Source: a virus. Taken from it: DNA of 64,000 bases. This document shows, one piece after another, positions 8,393 to 58,004 of the stretch. The position numbers and the translations under genes were made by a program. The number at the start of each line of letters is the position of its first letter. Within the stretch, counting starts at the first letter, position 1. The stretch is from IMG/VR virus record IMGVR_UViG_3300045988_183378; one strand, written 5' to 3'. The notes below the pieces were generated by a model. That model had not been told where the DNA came from. It saw only the letters and a list, made by a program, of their open reading frames with translations, and searched no databases.

Positions 8393-8405
8393 AAATTTGC
8401 AATCA

Positions 8406-8421
8406 AAAATCTGTCATATAA
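8406..8421 (+). promoter_or_regulatory. conserved promoter motif (drives short noncoding unit)
   Basis: core CTGTCAT 8411-8417; next terminator at about 8591-8618; no credible ORF (track ORF 8331..8543 overlaps gene end and is likely spurious). Confidence 0.45.
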
Positions 8422-8618
8422 TGATTAAATCAATATTGTATTATAATTTACAATGTGATAAAATATTGTCGGTACATATTAGGCATACATATATGCCTCC
8501 TCAAAGACTAGCACTTTTGTTAAAGCCGGTAATTTTGTCGTAAAAATACACTTTAATAGAATTTTACAATTCTACTAGCAACTTTGATTATAGCTCTCAC
8601 CTTAATGGTGGGAGCTTT
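8422..8618 (+). ncRNA. candidate small RNA (about 200 nt) between promoter motif and terminator
   Basis: hairpins ggcatacatatatgcc and agctctcaccttaatggtgggagcttttt; noncoding. Confidence 0.25.
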
Positions 8619-8623
8619 TTGTT

Positions 8624-8639
8624 ATTCTCTGTCATATTT
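8624..8639 (+). promoter_or_regulatory. conserved promoter motif
   Basis: core CTGTCAT 8629-8635; ATG 8671. Confidence 0.55.
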
Positions 8640-8670
8640 ATTGTGTAAATAAATATAAAGGAGAATAATT

Positions 8671-38308: not shown

Positions 38309-39433
38309 ATGGCAAATCGAGCAATTATATACAGATTATATCCAAACGAAAAGCAAAAGGTTCAGTTTCAGAAAACATTTGGCTGTGTTCGATTTGTTTA
38401 TAATCAGATGCTTACCGTTCAGGAAGAACGTTATAAAAATAACGAAAGCCATCTTAGTAAATTTGAGATGAACTATTATTGTAACAACGTTCTCAAAATA
38501 GAGCATGTGTGGTTAAAAGAAGTTGATAAATTTGCGTTGACAAATGCTATATATCATTTGGAAGACGGTTATCAACGTATGTTTAAACATTTAGGAAAAC
38601 ATCCCAAATATAAAAACAAACATACTGCAAAACGTTCCTATACCACCAATTTTACAAATAACAATATCAGTATTGGTGATAATTATGTAAAACTTCCGAA
38701 AGTAGGTAAAGTAAAGGCTAAAATCAGCCTTGATGTAAGCTTGTTAAAAATTAAGTCAGCTACAATCACACAAAACAGAGATGACTCTTATCAGGTGTCT
38801 ATACTTGTAGAGTATGATGAAGTTCCTATAACAGTAGGCGTAGCTACAGAGGATAATACAATCGGTCTGGATTATAAGTCAGATGGTTTGTATGTTGACA
38901 GTAATGGGGATATTGCGGATATGCCCCACTATTATAGAAAATCAGCCCATCAGCTGGCAAAACGTCAACGAAAACTTAAAAATAAAGTTGTAGGAAGCAA
39001 TAATTATTATAAGCAACAGAAAAAGGTTGCTAAAATTCACAGACATATTGCAAACCAGAGAAAGGATTATCTGCATCAAAAATCTACTGAGATAGTCAAT
39101 CAGTATGATTTTGTATGTGTGGAAGACCTTAATATGAAAGCGATGTCTAATAAAGGTTTTAGTAACGGAAAAGCCACTATGGATAATGGCTACGGAATGT
39201 TTCTTGTATTCTTAGATTATAAATTACAGGAACGAGGTGGAAAACTTGTTAAAGTGGATAAATACTACCCAAGCAGTCAGTTATGTAGCTGTTGTGGTTT
39301 TCAAAATGCAGAGTTAAAAAATTTATTCATAAGAGAATGGATTTGCCCTAATTGTGGTACTTATCACGATAGAGATAGAAATGCAGCTCTTAATATCAAA
39401 ACAGAAGGATTAAGATTGCTTGGAGCTTCTTAG
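38309..39433 (+). CDS. tnpB: TnpB (OrfB) RNA-guided nuclease of IS200/IS605 family
   Basis: N-terminal IIYRLYPNEKQKVQFQKTFGCVRFVYNQML; C-terminal RuvC/zinc-finger region CSCCGF...WICPNCGTYHDRDRNAALNI. Confidence 0.85.
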   Translation: MANRAIIYRLYPNEKQKVQFQKTFGCVRFVYNQMLTVQEERYKNNESHLSKFEMNYYCNNVLKIEHVWLKEVDKFALTNAIYHLEDGYQRMFKHLGKHPKYKNKHTAKRSYTTNFTNNNISIGDNYVKLPKVGKVKAKISLDVSLLKIKSATITQNRDDSYQVSILVEYDEVPITVGVATEDNTIGLDYKSDGLYVDSNGDIADMPHYYRKSAHQLAKRQRKLKNKVVGSNNYYKQQKKVAKIHRHIANQRKDYLHQKSTEIVNQYDFVCVEDLNMKAMSNKGFSNGKATMDNGYGMFLVFLDYKLQERGGKLVKVDKYYPSSQLCSCCGFQNAELKNLFIREWICPNCGTYHDRDRNAALNIKTEGLRLLGAS

Positions 39434-44533: not shown

Positions 44534-44566
44534 TAAAATAATTAACAATTAAATAATGTGTATTTA

Positions 44567-44602
44567 TACACCAGTTGAGATTAGTCAACTGGTGTATTTT
44601 TT
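44567..44602 (+). terminator. rho-independent terminator
   Basis: tacaccagttgagattagtcaactggtgtatttttt. Confidence 0.6.
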
Positions 44603-44613
44603 CTGTCATGTAT
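44598..44613 (+). promoter_or_regulatory. conserved promoter motif (CTGTCATgT)
   Basis: core 44603-44609; ATG 44645. Confidence 0.5.
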
Positions 44614-44644: not shown

Positions 44645-46438
44645 ATGTCAATGTTTGAACATGTAAAAATTGGAGAATTAACAAAAAAGGTTATTGAGTC
44701 AGGAGTTACAGTGTGTGAACATAACCATCCAGGAGGCTCTTTGTTTGATGCCGTAGATGAACCTAAAAGTTATTTAGATGCTGCATTTAATGCAGGATAT
44801 ACTAAATTTGCTGTTACGGACCATGCATCATTTTCAGCAATGCAAACATGTATTGATTACGCTAAGAAAATAAGTACTGAGGAACATCCATTTAATATCA
44901 TTTATGGCGTAGAGGCTTATATTGAAGTGCCACCATTTAAGATAAATGAACAGATTGGCCATATTATTATGTTAGCCACTTCAGAAAGAGGCAAGCATAT
45001 TATTGATAAGTTAAATTCTAAGGCTTCTGAAAAAAGAATGGGAAAGCCTGTTATTACAATATCAGATTTAAAGAAATATAACTTTAACGGTGATATAATA
45101 GCAACTTCAGCTTGCGTTTCGGGTGCACCAGCTCTGCAATTATTATCAGATGATGTTTTGGATAAAATGATTAACAGAGAAAGAAAAGCACAGCAGCATA
45201 CTACTGAAAAAGACGAGCTAGTTATACGTGATTGTATAAGTCCTGATGATAAAGAATATCTTTCAGCTAAAGATGAATTTGAAAGGGTATCGGCAGATTT
45301 AGATGAATTGATTAATATTCGTGATTCCAAGGAACTTAAATCAGAAAGAACACAGATTTCAAGAAAATTAAGAGATGCAAGAAAGTGTTTAAATGATGAT
45401 GATCCAGAGCTTATTAAACTGATTAACGAATATGAGGAGATAAATAATAAAATTCTGGAAGCTAAAGATAAAATTCCTAATGTCAGAAAATTAGTTAATG
45501 CTAAGAAAGCCGAGTTAAAGGATATAAGTCTTAAAGTAGAGGAATATATTAATCATGAAAATAAGATACAGCATTATGAATCATTAAAGAAAAGCCCAAT
45601 AGAATTAATGTCTGAAGCAGAAAAGACAATGCTTTTTTATCAGGAAATTTTTGGAGCAGGTAATTATTACATTGAAGTTCAGAATCATGGGCTTGAAATG
45701 GAAAGCAGAACATATCCTGTGTTAGCTCAGTTAGCAAGGAAGCATAATATCCCATTAGTTGCTGCTAATGATGCACATATGGCAGATAATTCTGATAGAA
45801 GTATTGATATGCGTAATGTAGCTAAATTTTTAAGATTTATTAAGATAAGTGAGTCGGAATCAGATAAAGAGTTATATGTAAAAACACCTTACGAACTTGC
45901 TCAGGCCTTATCAGCTATATTAACAGATGATCAGGTTGCAGAAGCACTCAATAACTTAAATGTAATTGGAAAAAGATGTGCTTATATTCCAGAAAAATCT
46001 AATCATTATCCAGTATTTGATAAGAACAAGGACTCAAACGAATTATTAAGATCTGAAGCAATTAAGGGAATTAATTGGAGATATCCTAACGGAAAAGGAT
46101 GGGATGAAGAACATCAGAAACGAATGGAATACGAACTTAATATTATCATTCAGATGGGCTTTGCCGATTATCATTTAATTGTAAAGGACTTCCTGGAATA
46201 TGGAAGAATTTGTGGATTAGTACCTATGGATAAACTATCAGAAGTACCTTTAACAATTGAAGGTGCAAAAGAGTATGTTAAGGCTCACAATTATAATACC
46301 GGAATTGGAATAGGCATTGGAAGAGGTTCAGGTGCCGGTTCATTGGTTACATATTTACTTGGTATTACCGGAATTGATCCATTTAAGTATAATCTGATTT
46401 TTGAACGATTCTTAAATCCAGAAAGAGTAAGTATGCCT
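44645..46438 (+). CDS. dnaE: DNA polymerase III alpha (DnaE-type) N-terminal part, exon 1 (PHP domain through ...[10 protein letters not shown])
   Basis: PHP motifs [15 protein letters not shown]; YYIEVQNHG; [10 protein letters not shown]; [42 protein letters not shown]; about 190-aa coiled-coil insertion in PHP region. Confidence 0.8.
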
Positions 46439-47378
46439 AAATATATTGGGCGTTCAGCGTGGACTCTAACTCAGAGGTGTGCTTAATATTTTATTATTAA
46501 GTGCTAACGGTAGAAGTTGAATAAGACTGCTATATAAAGTGTCACAACAGGATATATAGCTTAACCCATAGACGAAGCAGCTTCGTAAGAGAACCTACGG
46601 TCCTAATATTTTTATATAAAAGATATTGAAGGATAGCAGGCGATACCGTGCTAAGATTATAAATAATATTATATAAATAAGGAGGTGTATATTTATGATA
46701 GATTATATCAATTTTACATCATTCCTTGAAAAAGGTGAAAAAATAGTAGAAATTAAAAATCACCACGAATATTACATAACTTCATATGGAAAGATTTTTA
46801 GTATAAAACAAGGGAAAATTCGACAACTTAAACCTTTTTTAGATAGTAAAAAGAATTACAGGATGATAAGATTAGATAATAAAAAATATTTATTGCATCG
46901 ATTAGTTGCGATGAATTTTATTCCTAATCCTTATAATCTACCAGAAGTTAATCATAAAGACAAAAATAAACAAAATTGTAAGGTGAATAATTTAGAATGG
47001 TGTACTAGAAAAGACAATTTATATGATAGTTATAAAACTATGTCTCCTGTAAGAAATTATAAGTGTTGTAAATTATATAAAGGAGATATATTAATTGATA
47101 GATTTGAAAGCATATTAGCAGCAGCTCGATATGCTAAAGAAAAATATAACGCAAGTTATTCCTCAATGCATAAATATTTAAAATGGAATGACTTAAAAAT
47201 TGTTCGTATATAATATTATTTATTTTAAAGTGTAACGACTATCCTTTTTAAGGAGTACAACTGAGAATGGTTACAGTTGGAAGTGCGTTGAAATATAATA
47301 TTAACAATATTATATTGAGATATAGTCTAATCCCACTTATACAAGTGTTAAAGTACTACGAAAGTAGGGGTATATTTG
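46439..47378 (+). ncRNA. group I intron (940 nt) carrying an HNH homing endonuclease ORF
   Basis: exon1 ends ...AUGCCU with IGS-like GGGC at intron 5' end (U.G P1 pair); intron ends ...UUUG before GAUAUCGAU; joining gives ERVSMP|DIDSD contiguous with DnaE consensus; GC-richer structured segments. Confidence 0.65.
46695..47213 (+). CDS. intron-encoded HNH homing endonuclease
   Basis: HRLVAMNFIP...EVNHKDKNKQNCKVNNLEWCTRKDN (HNH with conserved N and H); own RBS aaggaggtgtatatttATG. Confidence 0.75.
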   Translation: MIDYINFTSFLEKGEKIVEIKNHHEYYITSYGKIFSIKQGKIRQLKPFLDSKKNYRMIRLDNKKYLLHRLVAMNFIPNPYNLPEVNHKDKNKQNCKVNNLEWCTRKDNLYDSYKTMSPVRNYKCCKLYKGDILIDRFESILAAARYAKEKYNASYSSMHKYLKWNDLKIVRI

Positions 47379-48134
47379 GATATCGATAGCGATCTTGCTC
47401 TTGGAGTAAGAGAAAAGACAATTGAGTATGTAAGAGCTAAATATGGTAGTGAAGCTGTTGTTGGAATTATTACAGAATCAAGACAGCAGGCTAAAGGTGC
47501 TATCAGAGATGCTGCAAGATATTATGGAAAGAAAGCTTATGATGATGAAAAGAAATTCTTATCTTTAGGAGATCAGATTCGTAAGAAAGTGCCTGCTAAA
47601 GCAACTAATTTTGAAGATATTGTTGGCATGAAAGATACTAATAAGGTTGATGAATTAGGCATTAATATTCAGGACAGCGTTTCTTTGTTAGATTTCTTAA
47701 AGGATGAATATAATAGTAATCCAGATGCTATTTCTATTCTTAATATTGCAGCTCATTGTGAAGGTATGCTTACGACATACGGACAACATGCCGCAGGTGT
47801 TATTATTTATGATAGTAATGATGTTACTGATTATATTCCTATTAGAGATGGAAAAAAGGGAATTAAAACTACAGAAATGGATATGATTCAGTGCGAAGCT
47901 AATGGATTATTAAAAATGGATTTTCTTGGATTAAAAACTCTTACAATTATTACTGACACACTCAGAATGATTCAGAGAGATACAGGAGAAGTAATTGATG
48001 TAATGAATATTCCATTAGAGGGTCCTAAAGCTGATAAGGTATACAAAGAAGTATATGCAAAAGGAAGAACTAAGAATGTTTTCCAGTTTGAGTCAGCCGG
48101 TATGAGGAATAACCTTAAGAAGTTATGCTCATAG
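47379..48134 (+). CDS. dnaE: DnaE N-terminal part, exon 2 (DIDSD...FQFESAGM...)
   Basis: DIDSDLALGVREKTIEYVRAKYG..VVGIITE...AKGAIRDAARYYG matches DnaE PDIDIDF..R.EVI.YV..KYG; ends LKKLCS* with TAG. Confidence 0.75.
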   Translation, partial: DIDSDLALGVREKTIEYVRAKYGSEAVVGIITESRQQAKGAIRDAARYYGKKAYDDEKKFLSLGDQIRKKVPAKATNFEDIVGMKDTNKVDELGINIQDSVSLLDFLKDEYNSNPDAISILNIAAHCEGMLTTYGQHAAGVIIYDSNDVTDYIPIRDGKKGIKTTEMDMIQCEANGLLKMDFLGLKTLTIITDTLRMIQRDTGEVIDVMNIPLEGPKADKVYKEVYAKGRTKNVFQFESAGMRNNLKKLCS

Positions 48135-48187
48135 TGAATAGTTAATTGAATATTTTGTATTAAAACGCATGTCATTATGATGTGCGT

Positions 48188-48203
48188 TTTTTCTGTCATA
48201 TTT
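48188..48203 (+). promoter_or_regulatory. conserved promoter motif
   Basis: core 48193-48199; ATG 48239. Confidence 0.55.
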
Positions 48204-48238
48204 CTTTTAAATTATAATAAATAAAGGAGAACAATATT

Positions 48239-48475
48239 ATGGAGAAAAATAATAAAACTCTTATGCAACGATTCATTGAAGCTGGATATTCTGCAAAAGA
48301 TATATTTCATCATGAATCAGATTTATATGTATTTGTCACACCAATTACTACTAGAGTTATTAATGAATGGTGTAAGGAAACAGGATTTGATAAGGATTGG
48401 CATTGCCCTATATTCACAGATCAGATAACTGGGAAACAAATGTATGATTGTGCATTCCAATACTATACTGAATAA
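48239..48475 (+). CDS. hypothetical protein (78 aa)
   Basis: ORF track. Confidence 0.4.
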   Translation: MEKNNKTLMQRFIEAGYSAKDIFHHESDLYVFVTPITTRVINEWCKETGFDKDWHCPIFTDQITGKQMYDCAFQYYTE

Positions 48476-48502
48476 AAATAAATAAAGTTTAAGGAGAAAA
48501 AT

Positions 48503-49135
48503 ATGGCAATATTTCATGAACATTTACAATACCATCCAGACACAGTAGAGAAACATAAAATTACAGATAAAGAAATCAAATTTTTGTCTGATTTGCAGCA
48601 TGAATTAAATACACAGGACCATGTAGGACAAGCTGATCCTCGATTTTGGGTTATTATGGGGAAAGAAAAGTGTATTGTTCCAGAAGGATATGAAGACGGT
48701 GTAACATTAATAGATAATGAGGCAGTCGAAGAAGTTGCTGATAATATTGATGATGCAATTGTATTTTTTAATAAGGAATTTGAAGAAAACGGTGACTCTT
48801 GGGTTATTTCAAAAGAATATGATGGATATTATGTTACATCAAAAGAAGATAATGATTATGAGGAATGTTTAGCTGATCTTGATGATTTAAAGACTTGGTT
48901 GAATGAGCATAATTATGGCAGATATACTTTCACCTGTTATGCATATAGAGATAAAATTTATGAAAACACAATGTTTTTAACAGAAAAGGCAGCCGCTGAA
49001 CATCTAAAGGCAAATCATTATCATTACGATGAGTACGCTCATACCTATGCTATGACTGCATGGAGAAGTCCTGAAGTAGAAGATATCATTAAGATTTTAC
49101 AGTCAGTAGATTTTTCTGCTATTGTTAGAAAATAA
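48503..49135 (+). CDS. acidic hypothetical protein (210 aa)
   Basis: ORF track; RBS aaggagaaaaatATG. Confidence 0.45.
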   Translation: MAIFHEHLQYHPDTVEKHKITDKEIKFLSDLQHELNTQDHVGQADPRFWVIMGKEKCIVPEGYEDGVTLIDNEAVEEVADNIDDAIVFFNKEFEENGDSWVISKEYDGYYVTSKEDNDYEECLADLDDLKTWLNEHNYGRYTFTCYAYRDKIYENTMFLTEKAAAEHLKANHYHYDEYAHTYAMTAWRSPEVEDIIKILQSVDFSAIVRK

Positions 49136-49145
49136 AAGAATGATA

Positions 49146-49202
49146 TTATCGCAATTAAGCAAAAAAACCCCAACCGACAATAGCCGGTTGTGGGTAGTTC
49201 AA
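49146..49202 (+). repeat. 57-bp hairpin repeat element, copy 6
   Basis: TTATCGCAATTAAGCAAAAAAACCCCAaCCGACAATAGcCGGTTGTGgGTAGTTCAAT; compensatory base changes preserve extended stem. Confidence 0.7.
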
Positions 49203-49224
49203 TTACAAGGATAGGGAAGAGAAT

Positions 49225-50214
49225 ATGATAAATAAAAATATATTAAATATGCCTGAGTATTCATTTTTAAAGGAAAATCAAAATTTAGATAAAAATATTT
49301 GTATACTTGGATTAGGTGGTAGCAGAGCATATGGGACAAATCTTCCAGAAAGCGATATTGATATAAGAGGAGTTGCTATTAGAAGAAAAGAAGATATCTT
49401 GTTAGGTAATGATTTTGAAAATTTTGTAGACGTTAATACAGATACAACTATTTATAGTTTTGATAAAATTATTGATTTATTAACAAAATGCAATCCAAAC
49501 ACTATTGAACTTTTAGGATTAGATACAGATGATTATATTTATAAAAATGAATTTGGGGAGCTTTTATTAAAAAATAAAGATATTTTTTTATCGAATAGAT
49601 GTATTAATACATTTAGTGAATATGCATTACAACAGTTATACCGTATGCAGCAGAAGACCAACGCTGCTTTAACGGAAGAAGAATTAAATAGACACATTTC
49701 TGGAGTGCTTAATAATATGTCCAAGAAAATGAAAGATAAGTACAATTTAGATGAAAATAATCTGTCTTTTTATTTGGTTGATGGCAAAATCAAATGTAAT
49801 ATTATTGCAACGCAGTGTTCAATAGAAGATTTGTCAGGAATGCTTTCGGAATTTAATAACACTTTAAGAGATTACCGGAAAACAAGTAAAAGGAATGAAC
49901 ATGCATTAAATCATGGTAAAATAGCAAAACATAGTATGCATTTACTTAGATTGTATATGATGGGAATTGATTTAGTTTCTGAAGGGAAAATTCAAACAAA
50001 AAGAATTAAAGAACATGATTTGTTGATGGATATTAGAAATGGTGTATATCTTGATGAAAATGGAATTCCTAATAAACAGTTTTTTGAAATAGTAGATGAA
50101 TACAAGAATAAGTTTGAAAATGCATGTAAAAACTCTGTATTGCCAGATGAGCCGGATATAGACAAAATCAATACATTTAGAATGGAAGTTAATGAGAAAA
50201 TTGTAAAGTTATAA
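49225..50214 (+). CDS. Pol-beta-superfamily nucleotidyltransferase-fold protein
   Basis: ILGLGGSRAYGTNLPESDIDIRGV = GS-x9-SDxD minimal NTase signature. Confidence 0.45.
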   Translation: MINKNILNMPEYSFLKENQNLDKNICILGLGGSRAYGTNLPESDIDIRGVAIRRKEDILLGNDFENFVDVNTDTTIYSFDKIIDLLTKCNPNTIELLGLDTDDYIYKNEFGELLLKNKDIFLSNRCINTFSEYALQQLYRMQQKTNAALTEEELNRHISGVLNNMSKKMKDKYNLDENNLSFYLVDGKIKCNIIATQCSIEDLSGMLSEFNNTLRDYRKTSKRNEHALNHGKIAKHSMHLLRLYMMGIDLVSEGKIQTKRIKEHDLLMDIRNGVYLDENGIPNKQFFEIVDEYKNKFENACKNSVLPDEPDIDKINTFRMEVNEKIVKL

Positions 50215-50250
50215 AATTAAACTGGTTACTATTAGTAGCCAGTTTTTTTA

Positions 50251-50266
50251 TTTTTTTGTCATTGTA
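50251..50266 (+). promoter_or_regulatory. promoter motif variant (TTTTTTTGTCATtg)
   Basis: core tTGTCAT 50256-50262; ATG 50299. Confidence 0.4.
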
Positions 50267-50298
50267 TTATTATAAAATTTAAAAAGGAGAATAAAATT

Positions 50299-50757
50299 AT
50301 GAAAACTAATGCATTTGAAATTAAGGAAAACAACTTAGAAACAATAAATGATATGATAGAAGCATTATTGGAAGTGCCTAAGAATTATTTATTGCATCCA
50401 TTAGGACAGAAATGCGCAATTGCAGTTGATAATTACCATAAATGTGTATATTTAGACGATCCTAATATGATGAGCGAGTTTAAATATGAATTAGAAGAAG
50501 ATATAAAAGAAAATGATGATTGGGATGGAGAAATCCCTGACGACAGTGATAGCCTTGAAAGCTTTTCATTATATTATGTATGGATAGGATATGAGTCAGA
50601 TAGTGGAGACAATTCAGGAGAATATTCATATTTTTCAAATGAGGATATGGCAAATGATTTCTTTGAATCTTCTAAAAATACTGATAAAACATTAGGAACA
50701 GCTTCATTTATAAACGGCAGATTAGAACCTGTTAAGGTTCTAAAAAGTACATTGTAA
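50299..50757 (+). CDS. very acidic hypothetical protein (152 aa)
   Basis: D/E/S-rich DDWDGEIPDDSDSLESFS..SDSGDNSGEYSYFSNEDMANDFFE. Confidence 0.45.
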   Translation: MKTNAFEIKENNLETINDMIEALLEVPKNYLLHPLGQKCAIAVDNYHKCVYLDDPNMMSEFKYELEEDIKENDDWDGEIPDDSDSLESFSLYYVWIGYESDSGDNSGEYSYFSNEDMANDFFESSKNTDKTLGTASFINGRLEPVKVLKSTL

Positions 50758-50788
50758 AAAGAAAGGGATTTTATGAAAACTTTAAATA

Positions 50789-50845
50789 TTATCGAAGAAT
50801 TGCAAGAAAACTCCATCCGACTAATGTCGGTTGTGAGTAGTTCAT
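50789..50845 (+). repeat. 57-bp hairpin repeat element, copy 7
   Basis: TTATCGAAGAATTGCAAGAAAACTCCATCCGACTAATGTCGGTTGTGAGTAGTTCAT. Confidence 0.75.
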
Positions 50846-50876
50846 TAAAACTTCAGAATCAGAAACAGAAAAGAAT

Positions 50877-51083
50877 ATGTTAAATATCATTAAAAATACT
50901 TTAATAAGTGAGATTTCAGAAGCTTCTATAGAAGTCTCTGAGACAAGTTGGTTGACTGAAAGTACATATGATGACGATGGATATTCTAACGATGATGGCG
51001 AGGAAGTTATTTATGCAAATACAGCGGTTAATATAATTGAAAGCGTCATATATGATAATTCTGACGAAAATAATAACAACTAA
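50877..51083 (+). CDS. small very acidic protein (68 aa)
   Basis: TYDDDGYSNDDGEEV...DNSDENNNN. Confidence 0.35.
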   Translation: MLNIIKNTLISEISEASIEVSETSWLTESTYDDDGYSNDDGEEVIYANTAVNIIESVIYDNSDENNNN

Positions 51084-51096
51084 AGGAGAATAAGAC

Positions 51097-51354
51097 ATGA
51101 CAATAATAAGAAATGGTAAGGAAATAAAATTAACATATGACGAAATTTATGCTGCTCATAAGGAATTTGTTTCAACATGGATGATTAATACAGCTAAAGA
51201 GATTATTCAGCCTCAGTATCATTCTGATATTACTGAGAATGATTATATTGATATTGGTGAAGCAGCTTATGATACTTACGCAGAAGGTAACGGTCTTACT
51301 GAATATGAAGCTGTTGAAGATGCTGTGGAAAAATTCTTAAGTGAAAGAAATTGA
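51097..51354 (+). CDS. acidic hypothetical protein (85 aa)
   Basis: RBS aaaggagaataagacATG. Confidence 0.4.
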   Translation: MTIIRNGKEIKLTYDEIYAAHKEFVSTWMINTAKEIIQPQYHSDITENDYIDIGEAAYDTYAEGNGLTEYEAVEDAVEKFLSERN

Positions 51355-51417
51355 ATATTTTAATTTTTCATAACTGAATAAGATTTTTTGAAAGCGGGAG
51401 ACTTATGTTTCCTGCTT

Positions 51418-51433
51418 TTTTTCTGTCATAAAT
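51418..51433 (+). promoter_or_regulatory. conserved promoter motif
   Basis: core 51423-51429; ATG 51463. Confidence 0.55.
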
Positions 51434-51462
51434 ATATTAAAAATTATAAAGGAGAAAAATTA

Positions 51463-52344
51463 ATGAAAAATATTATGATTTTTGATGGGAATTACATTCT
51501 CAGAAGATCTTTTTACGGTGTTCCAGAATTAAAAACCTCAAAGGGATTTCCGACTAATGCAATTAAAGGAGCTTTAAATACAATTCTATATATGAAAGAA
51601 AAGTATAGTCCTGATGAATTAATTGTTGCGTTTGATACTGCAAAGCCAACTTTCAGGCATTTAATGTATAACGGGTATAAGGCAACTAGAGATCCTGCAC
51701 CGGAAGAATTTAAGATTCAGAGACAGGCTATTGTTCCTATTCTTAAAACAATGAATATATGTGTTATTGAAAAAGAAGGATATGAAGCAGATGATATTAT
51801 AGGAACAATTTCAACTATTGAAAGTAAAGCCGGAAATAAGGTTAATATTATATCTGCAGATCATGATTTGTTACAATTATGTAATGATTTAGTATCATTA
51901 GTTGTTCCAAACAACCCGGAAGATATTTGGACTCCGGTAGAAATTATGAATGAGTATTCCGTTACTCCTAAACAGTTTATTGATGTAAAAACATTAATGG
52001 GAGATAAATCGGATAATATTCCTGGAGCTGCAGGTATTGGTCCTAAAACTGCAAGTAAACTAATACATAAGTATGGAAATTTGTTTAACATATATATGAA
52101 TATTTCAGATATTGAATCTAATATGTCTAAAGGAAAAAGTATTTCAACTTGTTTAATAAATAGTGAAGATAATATTTTGTTGTCAAAAATTTTAGCAACA
52201 ATAAAAACAGATGTAGAACTTGATGCTTATAACGCTAATGTATCAGATAATATGTTAAATGAAATTAGTGAGCAGATATTAGGTTTGTATGAACTTAACA
52301 GTATTATAAGTATACTTAAAAATGGCAACATTGTTTGCCTATAA
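51463..52344 (+). CDS. 5'-3' exonuclease / flap endonuclease (Pol I N-terminal 5'-nuclease family)
   Basis: IFDGNYILRRSFYG, LIVAFDTAKPTFRHLMYNGYKATR, GYEADDIIGTIS, TLMGDKSDNIPGAAGIGPKTASKLI. Confidence 0.75.
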   Translation: MKNIMIFDGNYILRRSFYGVPELKTSKGFPTNAIKGALNTILYMKEKYSPDELIVAFDTAKPTFRHLMYNGYKATRDPAPEEFKIQRQAIVPILKTMNICVIEKEGYEADDIIGTISTIESKAGNKVNIISADHDLLQLCNDLVSLVVPNNPEDIWTPVEIMNEYSVTPKQFIDVKTLMGDKSDNIPGAAGIGPKTASKLIHKYGNLFNIYMNISDIESNMSKGKSISTCLINSEDNILLSKILATIKTDVELDAYNANVSDNMLNEISEQILGLYELNSIISILKNGNIVCL

Positions 52345-52364
52345 TTATATTTAAGGAGAAAATC

Positions 52365-52781
52365 ATGATAATTGAAATTTTAACAAATGGTTGGTGTAAT
52401 ATTAAATTCGAAAAGACAAATTGTAGAGTAAACGCTTCATATTTAACCGATGTCCCAAATGACTTATTAGATATGTGCATTAATTATTATAACAATAATA
52501 CGGCATCCTGTTATTTTGATTCTGAAGGCTCTACAGCAACGCTAGTTTTGACACCAGATACAGCTTTCATAATTCATGAAGGGGAGCATTTAGGCTTAAT
52601 TAAACTATTGGAATCACCAAAGGAAATCATCGATTGTATAGTAAAGGAAATTGTAAAACAGATTGATTCTGCTGCAAGTTTTTTATCATGTAAATGTAAT
52701 GATTTATTTCAGTATGAAAAAAGAAAATCTGAATTAATACAAAAATTATATTTTGTACATGATAAGAGTAATTCAAATTAA
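52365..52781 (+). CDS. hypothetical protein
   Basis: ATG with RBS aaggagaaaatcATG within track ORF 52335..52781. Confidence 0.4.
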   Translation: MIIEILTNGWCNIKFEKTNCRVNASYLTDVPNDLLDMCINYYNNNTASCYFDSEGSTATLVLTPDTAFIIHEGEHLGLIKLLESPKEIIDCIVKEIVKQIDSAASFLSCKCNDLFQYEKRKSELIQKLYFVHDKSNSN

Positions 52782-52829
52782 AACAAATGCTTAATAACAA
52801 GTACCTATTAATGGGTACTTGTTATTTTA

Positions 52830-52845
52830 TTTTTCTGTCATTTAT
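52830..52845 (+). promoter_or_regulatory. conserved promoter motif (CTGTCATtt)
   Basis: core 52835-52841; ATG 52881. Confidence 0.5.
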
Positions 52846-52880
52846 TTATTATAACAATAAATGGAAGGAGAGTAAAAAAT

Positions 52881-53462
52881 ATGATTAAAGAATTTAAGGA
52901 ATTAGTAAATGCAATAAATTCGCCAGATAATGAATATAGAGAGAATGATTTAGATATGTTAAATTACAATATGGCCGCATTTGGAGAATATGTACAGATT
53001 GTTTATCATCAAAACTATTCAACTCCAATTAAATATGCTACACTTGAGGGAGAAGAATTACGAGAAGCTATTCAGTCTATGGATAAAAATCGGAGAATTA
53101 AACATGAAGCTGCAATAGCTGCGTGTTCCCAAATCAATAGAGATTGTGAATATTATAATGTTCCTAAGTTTTGCCCTGAAACAACTGATAGACATATAAT
53201 CGCAGATTTTTGCGCCCAGGTAACGGCTGCTTTTTATCTTGACGGAATCGGTAGAGATGCTAAAACTATAGATGATGTTATAAAGGCAATGACTCAAAAT
53301 TGTAAAAGTGTTAATATTAGTAATATAACAAACAATATTGACACAAATGAACTATCAGATATTGATTTAGATTTAGGCGGAGAAGATGATGAAGATAAAA
53401 TTATGCCAGATGTAATTCATACTGAAATTAATAAAGATAACAGAGAGGAAGAAGTAAGATAA
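52881..53462 (+). CDS. hypothetical protein (193 aa)
   Basis: ORF track; RBS aatggaaggagagtaaaaaatATG. Confidence 0.4.
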   Translation: MIKEFKELVNAINSPDNEYRENDLDMLNYNMAAFGEYVQIVYHQNYSTPIKYATLEGEELREAIQSMDKNRRIKHEAAIAACSQINRDCEYYNVPKFCPETTDRHIIADFCAQVTAAFYLDGIGRDAKTIDDVIKAMTQNCKSVNISNITNNIDTNELSDIDLDLGGEDDEDKIMPDVIHTEINKDNREEEVR

Positions 53463-53767
53463 TGGTAACTTTTATTAGAACATATGAATCCGGTCCATGG
53501 ATAATAGATGAATACGATAATAAAACATATAGAATTCTATTAAGAAGAGATTTAAGAACAGGTAAAGTCATAAGATTCTTTTTTACTCCAAAGATTCCAT
53601 ATTATGATATTGAAATTAAAACCATAAAAGATGATTTTTATATTAGTATTACTGGTAATGTTTCATATGATATTAATGATATTGATAAATTAAAAGACAG
53701 AATAGATTATGCTAAAAATTTGATCACTTATATAAAAGAAAATATATGTAATAAGTATTCTTTTTAA
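53462..53767 (+). CDS. hypothetical protein (101 aa)
   Basis: start overlaps previous stop (TAATG). Confidence 0.4.
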   Translation: MVTFIRTYESGPWIIDEYDNKTYRILLRRDLRTGKVIRFFFTPKIPYYDIEIKTIKDDFYISITGNVSYDINDIDKLKDRIDYAKNLITYIKENICNKYSF

Positions 53768-53777
53768 TATTCATGCA

Positions 53778-53803
53778 AGCGTCCAAAATTGGACGCTTTT
53801 TTT
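53778..53803 (+). terminator. rho-independent terminator
   Basis: agcgtccaaaattggacgcttttttt. Confidence 0.6.
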
Positions 53804-53804
53804 A

Positions 53805-53820
53805 ATTTTCTGTCATAAAT
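53805..53820 (+). promoter_or_regulatory. conserved promoter motif (CTGTCATAa)
   Basis: core 53810-53816; ATG 53854. Confidence 0.5.
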
Positions 53821-53853
53821 TATATAGTTATGAATTGAAAGGAGAAATTTAAA

Positions 53854-55539
53854 ATGAATAAAACAGGTATTGAAGATTTAATAGCAATGAATGCTTTATA
53901 TCGTCCTGGTCCTGAAAAGTTTATACCTGATTTCATAGAAGGTAAAAAGGATGCATCTAAGATTAAATATTTATGTCCTCAATTAGAGCCAATTTTGTCA
54001 ACTACTTATGGACAGATAGTTTATCAGGAACAGGTAATGCAGATTGTTCGTGATTTAGCAGGATATACATGGGGGCGTTCTGATTTAGTCCGTAGAGCTA
54101 TGTCAAAAAAACATCAGGATGAGATTGATGCTGAAAGACACACTTTTGTATATGGTAATGCTGATACTAAAAAAGAAAATGAAGCATTAGTACCAGGTTG
54201 TATTGCAAATGGAATTCCAGAAGTTATAGCTCATAAGATTTGGGATGCAATGGTTGACTTTGCTAAGTATGCGTTTAATAAGTCACATGCCACTGCTTAT
54301 GCTGTTACATCATATTGGACAGCTTTTCTTAAGTATTATTATCCGGCTTATTATCTTACAAATGTAATAAATCATACTGATAAGATTGATGAAGTCGCTG
54401 ATGATATTAGTGATGCCCTTGATTTTGGAGTAAAGGTATTGCCTCCGGACATTAATGCTTCAAATTTACATTGTGATGTTGTAGATGGGAACATTTTGTA
54501 TGGTCTGAGTAATATTAAGAATGTTGGAGCAGAAGCAGCTAAAATTATTGAAGATAGAAATGTTAATGGAGAATATTCTGATATTAAGGATTTTATCAAA
54601 CGAACAAATATTAATGCAGAAGCATTAAGTTCCTTAATTAAAGCAGGTGCTTTCGATTGCCTTGGTTATACAAGAACAATGATATCATTAGATATGATTT
54701 GTATGAAAGAAATTCAGGATACAATTAAGAAAATCAGAGAGAAGAGTAAGTTTATTGAAAACGCAAGTAAAGTTATTGAATTTGTGGAAGATTATATTGA
54801 TCTTGATGAGTTTAAGGAAAGAATTTCAGAAGAAAATATTTCCTTTCAAGTTACTTCAAAAAAGATGCCAACTAAGGATTCCATAATTAAACGTATCAAT
54901 TCAGCTAAGACAGTTATAGAAAGCTTAGAAGATGATCTTGAAAATATAGATATTGATTATGTAGAAGATGATTTAGGTCAGATTCTAAATGATGAAAAAG
55001 AAGTGTTAGGCGTTTATATTACAGGGCATCCAATTGATGAGTATAATATTTATACAGATCCCATTTCTGATATTTCAACAGAAGTTAACGATGTATCTGG
55101 TATAATTAAAAATCTTGTTGTAAGAAAGGATAGAAATGGATACGAATGGGTAACTTTTGAGGTAGAAGATAAAACAGGTTCTATTAATGGTGTATGTTTT
55201 TCTAAGGATTATGCGAATATTAGAGACTTACTTGTTAATGATGCTAAATTATGTTTATCAGGAAAAATTCAAGTAGATGATTTTAGATCTTCAGATGACG
55301 AAACTGTATATCAGATTATTGTTAAGTCTGTTAAACCTTTAAAGAAAAATAAGTCTTCATACAGATTTATATGTACTGTTTCTGAAGTAAATGATATTCT
55401 TGATTCTATTAATGAATATCTGGTAGATAATGACGGGGATTATTTATATTGGCTTGATTCAACAACCGGAATTGAACATTTATGCAAGAAATTCATTAAC
55501 CCTGATATGTCAGCACCTTCAATAGTCCGTAAATGCTAA
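53854..55539 (+). CDS. dnaE: DnaE C-terminal part as separate gene (fingers/thumb, OB-fold region)
   Basis: IAMNALYRPGPEKFIPDFIEGKK, LEPILSTTYGQIVYQEQVMQIVRDLAGYTWGRSDLVRRAMSKK, FAKYAFNKSHATAYAVTSY colinear with E. coli DnaE; own terminator, promoter motif, RBS and ATG. Confidence 0.8.
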   Translation: MNKTGIEDLIAMNALYRPGPEKFIPDFIEGKKDASKIKYLCPQLEPILSTTYGQIVYQEQVMQIVRDLAGYTWGRSDLVRRAMSKKHQDEIDAERHTFVYGNADTKKENEALVPGCIANGIPEVIAHKIWDAMVDFAKYAFNKSHATAYAVTSYWTAFLKYYYPAYYLTNVINHTDKIDEVADDISDALDFGVKVLPPDINASNLHCDVVDGNILYGLSNIKNVGAEAAKIIEDRNVNGEYSDIKDFIKRTNINAEALSSLIKAGAFDCLGYTRTMISLDMICMKEIQDTIKKIREKSKFIENASKVIEFVEDYIDLDEFKERISEENISFQVTSKKMPTKDSIIKRINSAKTVIESLEDDLENIDIDYVEDDLGQILNDEKEVLGVYITGHPIDEYNIYTDPISDISTEVNDVSGIIKNLVVRKDRNGYEWVTFEVEDKTGSINGVCFSKDYANIRDLLVNDAKLCLSGKIQVDDFRSSDDETVYQIIVKSVKPLKKNKSSYRFICTVSEVNDILDSINEYLVDNDGDYLYWLDSTTGIEHLCKKFINPDMSAPSIVRKC

Positions 55540-55560: not shown

Positions 55561-55591
55561 TACCGCTGTTTATTGCAGCGGTATTTTTTTT
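55561..55591 (+). terminator. rho-independent terminator
   Basis: taccgctgtttattgcagcggtatttttttt. Confidence 0.6.
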
Positions 55592-55610
55592 ATGTAAAGA
55601 TTTTTAAAAT

Positions 55611-55626
55611 TGTATCTGTCATATAT
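55611..55626 (+). promoter_or_regulatory. conserved promoter motif
   Basis: core 55616-55622; ATG 55653. Confidence 0.55.
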
Positions 55627-55652: not shown

Positions 55653-56564
55653 ATGATACTTAGTAACAATAACAGTAATATTAAGGAATTAAGAAATAAA
55701 AAAAATAAGCATGATTTAAATTCTTATATGGATTTTATGGCAAAAAACAAAATGAAAAGTAATTCTTTTTTTTCAAAATCAAAACAGTATATAAAGATTT
55801 TTATTCCATTTATTATTTCTGTTTTTATAATTTTATTTTCAATGTTTATTGCAACATTTATAGACAGTCTATTAAATATGTATATGAATGATGCAGGAGG
55901 AATTTCAACTAAAATAGATTATGAAGGATTTCGATTAATTTACACAATATCAACATATACATTAATGTTTGTTATGTGCATTATTTGTATAAAAAGCTCA
56001 TTTTACAATTATAAAAAAGATTTGTTTATGAAAAATAAATTAGTAGTAAATTGGAATTTTGCATTTTGTTTCATATTAATTTCTGTAATATTGCAGCTTA
56101 TTTCAGGAATTCAAATGCATTTTGTAAATGTATCAGATATTGATTATGGAAGTTTAGGAATAAAAACAATTATATCTACAATAATAGCAACTTTTGTGGC
56201 ACCTATTATTGAGGAATTGACTTTTAGATATATAATTTATGGCTATGCATATAAAGCAAGCAACAATAAATTATGTGCAAATATAATCCAAGCATTTTTA
56301 TTTGGAATAATTCATTTTAATTTTATTTTATTCCCTATATATGCTTTTGGCGGATATTTGTTAGGTGCTGTAAGAGATAAATATGGTATTAAACTTAGCA
56401 GCTTATATCATATTCTAATAAACTGTGTGGCATTAATACCATTTACGTTTTTTATAACAAATATATATTTACAGGTATGCATTTTAATAGTCTGCATAAT
56501 GAGTTTAATTTATTTTGTAATTAAGTGTTTTGAAAATATCAATATAGAAATTAAGGAGCAATAA
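55653..56564 (+). CDS. CPBP-family (CAAX/Abi-like) intramembrane protease, first gene of sigma-factor operon
   Basis: multi-TM; APIIEELTFRY (EExxxR) and FGIIHFN (FxxxH). Confidence 0.6.
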   Translation: MILSNNNSNIKELRNKKNKHDLNSYMDFMAKNKMKSNSFFSKSKQYIKIFIPFIISVFIILFSMFIATFIDSLLNMYMNDAGGISTKIDYEGFRLIYTISTYTLMFVMCIICIKSSFYNYKKDLFMKNKLVVNWNFAFCFILISVILQLISGIQMHFVNVSDIDYGSLGIKTIISTIIATFVAPIIEELTFRYIIYGYAYKASNNKLCANIIQAFLFGIIHFNFILFPIYAFGGYLLGAVRDKYGIKLSSLYHILINCVALIPFTFFITNIYLQVCILIVCIMSLIYFVIKCFENINIEIKEQ

Positions 56565-56975: not shown

Positions 56976-58004
56976 ATGGCAGATAAGAATTTATTATTAA
57001 ATAAAAAAAACAATAAAGATGAATATGTTGATGAATTATTTGATACAAATAAACCAATAGAAAACATAAATATTTTATCAGAGGATAATTATACCGATAT
57101 TTTAAATGATAAAGAGATTTTAAATGAAAAAGAGAAACTATTATTAGAAAATAATATAACTTATTATATTAAATCATTCGCTGATTATCCGGTTTTATCC
57201 AAAGATGAAACTCTTAAATTATTTGAAGAGATAAAAAAACATCCTAAAAAGAAAAAAGAAATAACCGAAAAATTGATTTTATCTAATATGCGTTTAGTCA
57301 TCAGTATTGCTAAAGCTGTTACAGCTAAAACGCAAAGTTTTGAAATGGATGATTTATGTCAGGCCGGTATTTTCGGGTTATACAGAGCTATACAAATGTT
57401 TGATTATAAATTAGGATATGCATTTTCAACTTATGCAACTCATTGGATTAGACAGAGTATATATAGAGAATTAGCCAATTATGATTTATTAGTTAGATTC
57501 CCTGTACATGTAAGAGAGCAGGATTCTTTTGTTAAGACTACATTTGTGGATTTAACTAATAAACTTCAAAGAAAACCTACAATTGATGAATTATATGATG
57601 TAGTAAAACAAAGATATCCTCTTTTAACTAAAGAAATGCTTGTACATATTCAGAGCTTTAATGAATTGGTTTCATTAGATGCACCTATTCAAAGTGATGA
57701 AGGCCATGACGATTCGTGTTTGGCTGATTATATAGAAGCTCCTGAACCTAAAGTTGAAGATACGATTATTCAAAAAGAAATGAATGAACTGCTTTGGAAA
57801 GAAGTTGAAGATTGTCTCACTCCTAGAGAATTATATGTAATTAAGAGTAGAATGGGATATGGTTCAAAGGTTAAAACTTTAAAAGATATAGGTACTGAAT
57901 GGAATGTTTCCAGAGAACGAATCAGACAAATTGAATCAAAAGCAATAAAAAAGATTAGAGTTCGTTTCAGACGGAAAGGATATAGTATACAATCTTTTAT
58001 GTAA
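56976..58004 (+). CDS. sigma-70-family RNA polymerase sigma factor (regions 1.2-4 present)
   Basis: region 2 LILSNMRLVISIAK...DDLCQAGIFGLYRAIQMFD...FSTYATHWIRQSIYREL; region 4 LTPRELYVIKSRMGYG..KTLKDIGTEWNVSRERIRQIESKAIKKIR. Confidence 0.8.
   Translation: MADKNLLLNKKNNKDEYVDELFDTNKPIENINILSEDNYTDILNDKEILNEKEKLLLENNITYYIKSFADYPVLSKDETLKLFEEIKKHPKKKKEITEKLILSNMRLVISIAKAVTAKTQSFEMDDLCQAGIFGLYRAIQMFDYKLGYAFSTYATHWIRQSIYRELANYDLLVRFPVHVREQDSFVKTTFVDLTNKLQRKPTIDELYDVVKQRYPLLTKEMLVHIQSFNELVSLDAPIQSDEGHDDSCLADYIEAPEPKVEDTIIQKEMNELLWKEVEDCLTPRELYVIKSRMGYGSKVKTLKDIGTEWNVSRERIRQIESKAIKKIRVRFRRKGYSIQSFM

Follow-up and report, generated by a model that had tools for sequence, protein, structure and literature searches.

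The DNA polymerase (Pol) III alpha subunit, DnaE, encoded by the IMG/VR virus record IMGVR_UViG_3300045988_183378 is probably produced from two separate genes, the upstream one interrupted by a single intron, with the two protein halves remaining unligated. The window analysed here is the whole 64,000-nucleotide (nt) stretch of this DNA, which is AT-rich (~28% GC) and carries nearly all genes on one strand. According to the open reading frame (ORF) listing and the raw sequence, the locus consists of four collinear pieces on the plus strand, namely an exon 1 ORF, an ORF of 172 amino acids (aa), exon 2, and a 561-aa gene. A sequence-only reading of the window had described the gene as fragmented three ways, and its parts (the ORFs, the 940-nt intervening sequence, and the gene at 53854) are all present. 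The 940-nt element is almost certainly a group I intron, while dnaE was genuinely split in two, long ago, after ...LKKLCS and is not a pseudogene, leaving what is likely to be a maintained, functional two-chain polymerase. The observation behind the sequence-only reading is confirmed and its interpretation supported, the favoured alternative being a naturally two-subunit enzyme. The locus is laid out as follows.

44645 to 46438, plus strand: exon 1 of the dnaE N-half, 598 codons; PHP domain with helical insertion and start of the palm; colinear with the intron-less homologs P0121 and L081.
45116 to 45676, plus strand: helical (coiled-coil-like) insertion in the PHP domain, residues ~158-343.
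46439 to 47378, plus strand: 940-nt element, almost certainly a group I intron; subgroup IA, td-like core.
46695 to 47213, plus strand: predicted intron-encoded HNH homing endonuclease, 172 aa, in the P6 loop.
47379 to 48134, plus strand: exon 2 of the dnaE N-half, 251 codons plus TAG (48132-48134); begins DIDSD and ends ...GMRNNLKKLCS before the stop.
48135 to 53853, plus strand: cargo between the halves, ten genes; other content or none in relatives.
53854 to 55539, plus strand: dnaE C-half, 561 aa; remaining fingers (RRAMSKK, FNKSH), helix-hairpin-helix (HhH) beta-binding domain, and OB fold.

The ORF starting at 44645 extends to 46486, beyond the end of the DnaE-homologous part at 46438, because its frame reads into the intron. 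Exon 2 supplies the catalytic DIDSD, the remaining palm, the thumb, and the first ~65 residues of the fingers. A TTG "start" of an ORF at 47376 was rejected as an ORF-finder artefact; it sits inside the P9/terminal-G region of the intron.

Joining position 46438 to 47379 creates an open frame of 849 codons, which is colinear and gap-free with the uninterrupted 893-aa homolog from L081, a relative 65-69% identical. The spliced product of 849 aa has the same length as P0121, an intron-less protein standing for a cluster of 251 database sequences. In L002, a phage contig 99% identical, dnaE is uninterrupted and reads ...agtatgcct/gatatcgat... (with the slash marking the junction; at greater length, ...AGTATGCCT followed by GATATCGAT...), i.e., exon 1 joined directly to exon 2. 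As this allele is intron-less exactly there, the intron boundaries at 46439-47378 are unambiguous. Another 99%-identical contig, L001, contains the intron, so that the two contigs display a presence/absence polymorphism. In L111 and L119, which are the same phage, the P6 loop of the intron is 63 nt rather than 578 nt, and both are deletion derivatives, as the last 18 nt of the HNH ORF remain.

The intron is also found well beyond these close relatives. Copies lacking the ORF (398-465 nt) remain at the same position, and homologous introns occupy the same ...SMP/DID... codon boundary in DnaE genes that are 25-31% identical and unsplit downstream. The copy in L026 is 452 nt long, ORF-less, and up to 94% identical, while that of L091 is 1340 nt long with an HNH ORF 56% identical to the one in the window. 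A metagenome scan with a 20-nt core word returned 48 further intron loci, and the intron core matched 180 GenBank phage records, mostly of Staphylococcus, Bacillus, Enterococcus, and Streptococcus phages, in a BLAST search at distant sensitivity. For Staphylococcus phage SPbeta-like (KT429160.1, 99208-103605, L152), the match is the ~460-nt spacer between the annotated dnaE_2 and dnaE_1, located at P/DID. Mammaliicoccus phage phi116 has the same arrangement plus a homing endonuclease, and PV389079.1 131757-134038 (L151) is annotated with a truncated "DNA polymerase" followed by a "homing endonuclease". Published "dnaE_2"/"dnaE_1" records of this type lack an intron annotation, as the intervening sequence is a homolog of the group I intron. 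The intron is mobile: alleles with and without it occur in genomes that are otherwise nearly identical, and divergent hosts carry it at one and the same site.

The fold of the intron RNA was analysed using an alignment (A1) of ten different copies from which the ORF loop had been trimmed. By itself, RNAalifold proposed 88 pairs for this alignment, and compensatory changes are seen in 41. An explicit model comprised P1, P2, P2.1, P3, P4, four helices of the P5 domain, P6a, P7 (forming the pseudoknot), P7.1, P7.2, P8, P9, P9a, P9b, and P10. Under this model, 95.0% of 956 cells are standard pairs, whereas sliding the partners by 1-3 columns lowers this to 33-43% and shuffles give 80.3%. Changes on both sides are seen in 48 of the 98 pairs (9-15 when slid), and the observed values were reached in 0 of 500 shuffles. 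Selected elements of the model are positioned as follows.

46433-38/46448-53: P1, AUGCCU/GGGCGU, 100% paired.
46443-47/47379-83: P10, AUAUU/GAUAU, 88% paired across copies.
46454-59/47286-91: P3.
46507-12/46644-49: P4.
46659-68/47214-23: stem closing the P6 loop with the HNH ORF.
47235-41/47323-28: P7.
47242-45/47251-54: P7.1, 4 of 4 pairs covary.
47258-63/47274-79: P7.2, 5 of 6 pairs covary.
47292-95/47313-16: P8.
47356-59/47364-67: P9b.
47378: terminal (omega) G, directly 5' of the 3' splice site.

P7.1, P7.2, P8, and P9b covary at nearly every pair, and the core helices P3-P9 with a P3/P7 pseudoknot are supported by covariation. In P1, the splice-site pair U46438.G46448, involving a G of GGGC, is kept as U.G in all ten copies. 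The position of P7.1 and P7.2 between the 5' strand of P7 and the 3' strand of P3 places the intron in subgroup IA. The segments UAACGACUAUCC...GGAGUA and GAGAUAUAGUCU in the 3' core resemble what we take to be the sequence of the T4 td intron, as presumably does the CUAACGG...ACCGUGCUAA arrangement of P4/P6 with an ORF in the P6 loop. Alternative pairings for P5 (CUGC/GCAG) and P3 (GUGCU/AGUGC) were dropped by eye, as they were broken in other copies.

The 172-aa ORF is preceded by an AAGGAGG Shine-Dalgarno sequence and matches Pfam HNH_3 (5.9e-9, 35.9 bits; cut-off 24.8), while NUMOD4 scores 20.8 bits, just below its cut-off of 23.4. Its only match in the Protein Data Bank is I-HmuI of the SPO1 polymerase intron (1U3E, E=1.2e-8, residues 20-112). 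With an HNH motif, an N-terminal NUMOD-type module, and a relationship to I-HmuI, the ORF is predicted to encode an I-HmuI-type HNH homing endonuclease. Taken together, the data support a mobile subgroup IA intron with an SPO1-type (I-HmuI-like) HNH endonuclease. The sequence-only reading had named group I hallmarks (the U46438-GGGC pair, G47378, and the HNH ORF with AAGGAGG) and a parallel to SPO1-type introns; the former are borne out by the empty L002 allele and the covariation, and the latter by the match to I-HmuI.

Several points weigh against this assignment. Self-splicing in vivo is a step that we infer. P4 and P7 are invariant across the copies and provide no covariation evidence; these stems are uninformative as they never vary. 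The least supported helix is P3, with 80% pairing and 3 covarying pairs, and it follows directly after P1, which is not the textbook order. In L103 and L147, two divergent copies out of 14, the terminal G is offset by 1 nt (...AAAG/A GAT); in these, in-frame splicing would need a 5' splice site after ATGCC, with C instead of U at position -1. Finally, the check by a group I covariance model suggested in the sequence-only reading came out negative: Rfam RF00028 gave no match at the gathering threshold across the whole window, and a permissive scan of the intron region returned nothing relevant. The best RF00028 score, 14.4 bits (gathering 50) at E=0.4, was obtained for the ORF-less copy of L026, and L111 and L098 gave none. 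This miss may be due to the weakness of the model on phage IA introns. As Rfam is silent on the intron, the classification was made by comparative analysis.

The Rfam result would also suit a free-standing HNH gene lying between two cistrons, with the polymerase made in three pieces, and free-standing homing endonucleases are known to split phage genes, e.g., mobE in nrdA (PMC2988022 and general background). Yet, the persistence of ORF-less copies at the same site is expected of an RNA element, the DIDSD of exon 2 is preceded by neither a start codon nor a ribosome-binding site (RBS), and the 48 covarying pairs form a group I-type fold with P1/P10 guide pairings. In addition, the core resembles sequences in phage groups known for group I introns, and the free-standing gene is accordingly given little chance.

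For the group I intron, the following course can be proposed. The upstream gene would be transcribed with the 940-nt intron, which would self-splice. In P1, U46438 would pair with the G of GGGC in the guide sequence, while P10 would align the 3' exon and G47378 would occupy the G-binding site of P7. Splicing would yield an mRNA for the 849-aa N-half, containing PHP with its long helical insertion, palm, thumb, and the first ~65 fingers residues. The intron is a selfish mobile element, and its HNH endonuclease may cut or nick intron-less dnaE at the highly conserved SMP/DID catalytic-site codons, presumably its target, whereupon the intron would be copied in by repair. The phage population displays all stages of the homing cycle: intron absent, present with ORF, and present with the ORF deleted.

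In L097 (6122-6641), a 66%-identical relative, the HNH ORF is broken into pieces of 67 aa and 108 aa with the intron core intact, which suggests an endonuclease decaying inside an intact intron core. Many other insertions are carried by dnaE of gut Firmicute phages, as in L088/L089 (~860-2310), L004 (1655-3941), L027 (8244-9307), L046 (~7980-9290), and L099 (1940-4150). Their kinds include a paralogous intron core at a second fingers site with a different ORF 5' of the core, a 2.3-kb insert elsewhere, and a copy with two endonuclease ORFs (LAGLIDADG_3 and NUMOD4). The 1.06-kb insert of L027, at the same SMP/DID site, is GC-rich and unrelated, and was excluded from the intron alignment.

The second interruption is the fission of dnaE. 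In Pfam, positions 55-102 of the DNA_pol3_alpha profile are covered by exon 1 and 103-260 by the exon 2 ORF, while DNA_pol3_finger is covered from 1 to 59 by the exon 2 ORF and from 63 to 162 (of 166) by the gene at 53854, followed by HHH_6 and an OB fold. All DnaE domains are found across the two genes in DnaE order: PHP, palm, thumb, fingers, HhH beta-binding, and OB. Protein searches returned ~20 clusters of N-halves (808-893 aa, 47-99% identical to that of the window) and ~36 clusters of stand-alone C-halves (540-660 aa, 44-99% identical), and the clusters to which the two halves belong hold 203 and 251 member sequences from many samples. The end point is shared by all aligned N-halves, at ...FQFESxGMRxxLKxLxx followed by 0-2 residues, where unsplit relatives read on as ...LKxxxP-xxIEDII..NALYRPGP. 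All C-halves begin with Met and 1-16 residues followed by (S)IEDIIAMNALYRPGP, and a strong Shine-Dalgarno sequence precedes the C-half in five of five sequenced examples. Every contig of sufficient length carries the two halves in the order N, C on one strand, yet the distance between them varies widely.

L148: gap of 125 nt, nothing between the halves.
L149: gap of 0.8 kb, an ADP-ribosyltransferase-like gene and a 32-aa ORF.
L081-L083: gap of 2 kb, a 5'-3' exonuclease, DUF3232, and a 107-aa ORF.
The window: gap of 5.7 kb, ten genes.
L084/L094: gap of 18.4 kb, ~20 genes including MCM-like, UvrD, PARP, ParA, and Rep3.

In L148, the 125-nt spacer consists of a terminator-like hairpin, a TCTGTCATA motif, and an RBS only; every frame of the spacer contains a stop, and the C-half, in a different frame, has an RBS of its own. 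The stops and the separate RBS exclude read-through or bypass. A relative without the cassette that keeps the stop had been considered a sign of a pseudogene in the sequence-only reading; this case does occur in L148, yet it indicates a maintained split, as the C-half is intact with its own RBS and the break is conserved throughout the clade. Comparison with unsplit relatives, another check suggested there, showed that more distant DnaEs (≤41% identity, loci L003-L080) are unsplit, with the split conserved within the clade. Judged by these sequences, two separately translated cistrons, both conserved, appear to cover one ancestral protein without loss, as in the phage "genes-in-pieces".

The stop of exon 2 at LKKLCS-TAG was correctly read from the sequence; it had been placed at the palm-fingers junction, whereas the fingers domain has already run for ~65 residues at this point (position 59-63 of the 166 in the Pfam finger profile). 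On Taq Pol III alpha (2HPI), ~684 is the last residue matched by the N-half, and the C-half aligns from there on (~685-843 onward), with a 3-residue HMMER gap exactly at the break; in E. coli alpha, the break corresponds to ~residue 625. An AlphaFold2 model of the N-half based on 99 homologs reached a mean predicted local distance difference test (pLDDT) score of 94.9 and a predicted template modelling score of 0.88, and its top Foldseek matches were 2HPI, 7PU7, 5LEW, and E. coli alpha (E 1e-28 to 1e-36). As the modelled chain ends 2 residues after the terminal helix 838-847, the break falls in an inter-helix linker.

The N-half carries PDIDSD and the column of the third Asp, and D599, D601, and D779, which we take to be the catalytic aspartates of DnaE, are in invariant alignment columns. 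RRAMSKK, FNKSH, the HhH domain, and the OB fold are in the C-half, and the catalytic and motif residues are intact in both halves. With the catalytic Asp in the N-half and fingers, HhH, and OB in the C-half, an active enzyme needs both chains. The downstream gene, with its own terminator/promoter-like cassette and Shine-Dalgarno sequence, would give the 561-aa C-half, and the halves would most likely associate non-covalently, re-forming the fingers domain across the broken linker into a heterodimer with an active site drawn from both chains. Such a fingers domain would presumably be reassembled from two chains without a covalent link.

The exon 1 product also contains a large insertion in the PHP domain, with 186 residues between Cys157 and Glu344 compared to 33-39 (median 35) in 59 canonical DnaEs. 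In the AlphaFold2 model, it forms helices at 168-184, 203-226, 229-248, 254-314 (61 residues), and 318-336 with pLDDT ≥90, and it gave weak Foldseek matches to antiparallel coiled coils. The insertion of ~190 aa noted in the sequence-only reading is thus real, yet it is not peculiar to this gene, being present in all clade members down to ~30% identity. As unsplit members also carry it, the insertion predates the split and is unrelated to it.

The history of the split was addressed with bootstrapped neighbour-joining (NJ) trees of the N part and the C part separately. The N-part tree gave 100% support for a clade of all split forms together with the unsplit P0127 (1403 aa), which was sister to the split P0129 at 82% and fell outside the split forms in only 2% of replicates. 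In the C-part tree, the C-halves and P0127 formed a clade at 71%, and the C-halves without P0127 in 0% of replicates; the nearest outgroups are the unsplit P0139 and P0145. The junction of P0127 (L096 10001-14212) reads LKELLH-DGKGS-IEDII, missing the ancestral proline and resembling the leader of the split C-half P0011 (MGKAS-IEDII). The simplest reading of the sequences would be one fission followed by at least one re-fusion (P0127). Repeated fission at the same site would be the alternative history, and NJ alone cannot decide between the two. Probably, the gene broke once, in the ancestor of these phage-like elements of gut Firmicutes, which have retained the split, and accessory genes have come to collect in the slot between the two parts.

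Against a maintained two-chain enzyme, three points should be considered. We infer, first, that the two halves form a heterodimer; second, the termini carry no dedicated docking sequences to show how the halves find each other; and third, the unsplit P0127 nests in the split clade, so that re-fusion or several same-site fissions are needed. The C-half homologs P0012, P0016-P0018, P0021, P0022, P0026, and P0030 have an N-terminal extension of 40-90 residues before IEDII...RPGP, which the C-half of the window lacks. This extension could be a docking or regulatory module.

The sequence-only reading had left room for a gene invaded by a mobile cassette, and the downstream break might accordingly reflect a decaying or recently disrupted gene, with non-functional fragments and use of the host polymerase. 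The 5.7-kb block of mostly unknown accessory genes in the gap and the TnpB element elsewhere in the window would fit such an invasion. However, ~20 N-half and ~30 C-half clusters share the break point and have retained all catalytic and motif residues despite divergence to 44-47% identity (47% for the N-half), the halves are intact whether 125 nt or 18.4 kb apart, the C-halves have a start codon and strong RBS exactly at the break, and the clusters have 203 and 251 members from many samples. A recent invasion or pseudogene is therefore very improbable.

Even less likely is that the halves are joined after translation by a split intein. Cyanobacterial dnaE is the classic split-intein gene, and its site, which presumably lies before CFNKSH, would be around residue 128 of the C-half, i.e., ~128 residues downstream of the break and a different site. 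Inteins also occur in phage DnaE, and metagenomic "fractured genes" with split inteins have been described (PMC2677866). Yet, neither half of the window polymerase has an intein/Hint domain according to Pfam, and the termini are flush with unsplit homologs, with 2 extra residues on the N-half and ~4 on the C-half. Flush termini leave no room for an intein, and in the absence of one the two polypeptides stay unligated. Equally improbable is that the sequence between the halves is removed from RNA or DNA (a giant or trans-spliced intron or an excised element) or bypassed by the ribosome to give one polypeptide: the gene does have an intron at its first interruption, and T4 gene 60 is a case of translational bypassing, but Rfam gave no match at the gathering threshold across the window, such that no group II or other intron explains the 5.7-kb gap, the gap DNA is unrelated among relatives and has independently expressed genes, terminators, and promoter-like motifs, and neither the stops and RBS of L148 nor the 18.4 kb between the halves in L084/L094 fit a single product.

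With the two halves as separate genes, the question arises of what lies between and around them. The ten cargo genes encode a 78-aa protein, a 210-aa protein (phrog_3205), a 329-aa RlaP-type nucleotidyltransferase, three small acidic proteins, a 5'-3' exonuclease, a 148-aa protein, a DUF3232 protein, and a 101-aa protein. The number of genes, the flap exonuclease, and the nucleotidyltransferase agree with the sequence-only reading; the acidic proteins number five (pI <4.7 in 5 of 10 ORFs) rather than the four it had counted. A 5'-3' exonuclease gene is also located between the halves in L081-L083, and its start in the window is most likely ATG 51463 and not TTG 51388. No known defence genes were matched in the cargo by PADLOC, and the idea of the slot as a holder of such genes has no support. 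The genes and regulatory cassettes concerned are the following.

44566 to 44608, plus strand: hairpin and TTCTGTCATG upstream of the N-half; 13-bp stem at 44566-44597, T-run, and CTGTCAT motif, with an AAGGAGG RBS before ATG 44645.
51390 to 51430, plus strand: cassette of the exonuclease gene, with terminator at 51390-51419 and TCTGTCATA at 51422-51430.
51463 to 52344, plus strand: 5'-3' (flap) exonuclease gene; Pfam 5_3_exonuc_N 4.6e-47, 5_3_exonuc 6.9e-28.
52881 to 53462 and 53462 to 53767, plus strand: DUF3232 gene and 101-aa gene, syntenic with L081, directly upstream of the C-half.
53777 to 53853, plus strand: cassette of the C-half, with terminator-like hairpin at 53777-53798, TCTGTCATA at 53809-53817, and AAGGAGA RBS.
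55653 to 56564, plus strand: Rce1-like (CPBP) membrane protease gene; Pfam PF02517 2.2e-15.

The TCTGTCATA motif occurs at 32 sites in the window compared to 0.92 expected, 27 of the 32 being on the plus strand, and includes sites at 1353, 5737, 8410, 48192, 51422, 53809, and 55615. Typically, a terminator-like hairpin immediately precedes it and a start codon follows 35-45 nt later; it looks like part of a genome-wide terminator/promoter unit, possibly read by the element's own sigma-70-like factor (56976-58004). One copy follows directly after the N-half stop, at 48192, and the TTCTGTCATG upstream of the N-half is a variant with one mismatch. As proposed in the sequence-only reading, the C-terminal gene at 53854 has its own terminator-like hairpin, TCTGTCATA motif, and RBS, and a second cassette flanks it downstream at 55561-55623. 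As each half carries the same promoter-like cassette, the halves are separate units of transcription and translation. Recombination between repeated cassettes may be a candidate mechanism for the build-up of cargo between them.

The Rce1-like gene is found directly downstream of the C-half in all relatives examined (L081, L084, L148, L149). Besides the sigma-70-like factor, the window encodes UvrD, RecJ, a PARP-like protein, a class A penicillin-binding protein (PBP), flotillin, and TnpB. The TnpB/IS605 OrfB-type gene (38309-39433), the class A PBP (8671-11004), the PARP-like ADP-ribosyltransferase (4244-5530), and the flotillin/Band 7 gene (31224-32798) are unusual cargo for a phage replication region, and in the relative L149 a Y1 transposase and TnpB lie directly upstream of the N-half. 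No virion genes were found among the window proteins sampled. Relatives carry Rep3 and ParA/ParB, and near-identical contigs of 95 and 103 kb are classed as viral in IMG/VR. The intron and flanking exons identical to those of the window are found on contigs of 95-103 kb (L001/L002), 322 kb (L119, OCHC01000010.1), and 400 kb (L128). The sole host clue is one database source of a C-half, named as the metagenome-assembled genome (MAG) Lachnospira pectinoschiza (157-kb contig). A megablast of the 10.9-kb region against GenBank phages gave no match, and a plasmid collection and species-representative genomes contained distant relatives only (≤41% identity, mostly unsplit), except for two partial MAG matches at 49-55% identity (L178, L206). 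The lineage was found in no isolate genome, plasmid, or cultured phage of the collections searched, and we call it a phage-like extrachromosomal element, probably of gut Lachnospiraceae-type Firmicutes, which may be a phage, a phage-plasmid, or a plasmid.

The intron is an ordinary member of the known phage group I introns with HNH endonucleases in polymerase genes. Like those of the Bacillus phages SPO1 and SP82 (I-HmuI, I-HmuII), it is a mobile group I intron with an HNH gene at a polymerase catalytic-site codon, and its ORF in the P6 loop and its P7.1/P7.2 presumably match T4 td. It differs in residing in a C-family dnaE, whereas the SPO1 polymerase is A-family, in having a P5 domain enlarged to several hairpins, and in not being scored by the Rfam model. 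Comparable cases are Staphylococcus phage SPbeta-like and Mammaliicoccus phage phi116, whose intron cores are 74-76% identical over the aligned parts and sit at the same P/DID site; their dnaE genes, however, have no fingers split, as dnaE_1 is 828 aa and continues to the C-terminus.

What appears to be new is the intein-free split of a C-family polymerase of the genes-in-pieces type. To our knowledge and in the literature searched, the only naturally split Pol III alpha known is that of cyanobacteria, which is re-ligated by an intein. As in cyanobacterial dnaE-n/dnaE-c, the subunit is encoded in two separate genes that may be far apart; unlike there, no intein is present, the termini are flush with extein sequence, and the product stays as two chains. 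The genes-in-pieces described so far include the split B-family polymerase gp43A/gp43B of Aeromonas phages 25 and 44RR, NrdA of Aeh1 (mobE), and T4 topoisomerase 39/60 (mobA), and the split Aeh1 NrdA is reported to be fully functional (PMC2988022), while the metagenomic fractured genes are split and re-ligated by inteins (PMC2677866). The present case resembles gp43A/B in that an essential phage replication enzyme lies in two cistrons needing non-covalent reassembly, with the break in a conserved region, and in that the halves in 44RR, like those in the relative L148 (125 nt), have just a brief untranslated spacer between them. It differs from gp43A/B in being C-family (DnaE) and not B-family, with the split extending over a deep clade (to ~45% identity) and gaps of up to 18 kb. 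It also differs from the genes-in-pieces cases in that no homing endonuclease was found at the break in any relative examined and one apparent re-fusion is seen, and from the functional Aeh1 NrdA in that activity of the DnaE halves is a prediction. No description of an intein-free split DnaE was found in the literature, most subscription journals lying outside the search, so that an earlier description is possible.

A further step, offered tentatively and judged rather unlikely, would be an obligate intein-free heterodimeric C-family replicase, with the catalytic aspartates on one chain and the dNTP-binding fingers, clamp-binding, and OB domains on its partner, a stable fission reversed at least once, a slot that lies between the element's terminator/promoter cassettes and serves as the preferred landing site of accessory genes, and a split that is possibly exploited. 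For example, activity might depend on the expression of both units, or the C-half, with its 40-90-aa extension in some relatives, might dock other partners.

For the annotation of phage genomes, "dnaE_1/dnaE_2" pairs in published records represent unannotated introns, and the split warns against reading stand-alone "OB-fold protein" or "partial DnaE" entries in gut viromes as fragments or pseudogenes, since they are halves of one enzyme. In the intron, nature provides a clear case of the homing cycle within a single phage population. A conserved intein-free fission would moderately surprise a replication specialist: it marks a permissive site in C-family polymerases, inside the fingers domain, and provides a natural system for the assembly of a replicase active site from two polypeptides, as well as a possible starting point for engineered split polymerases.

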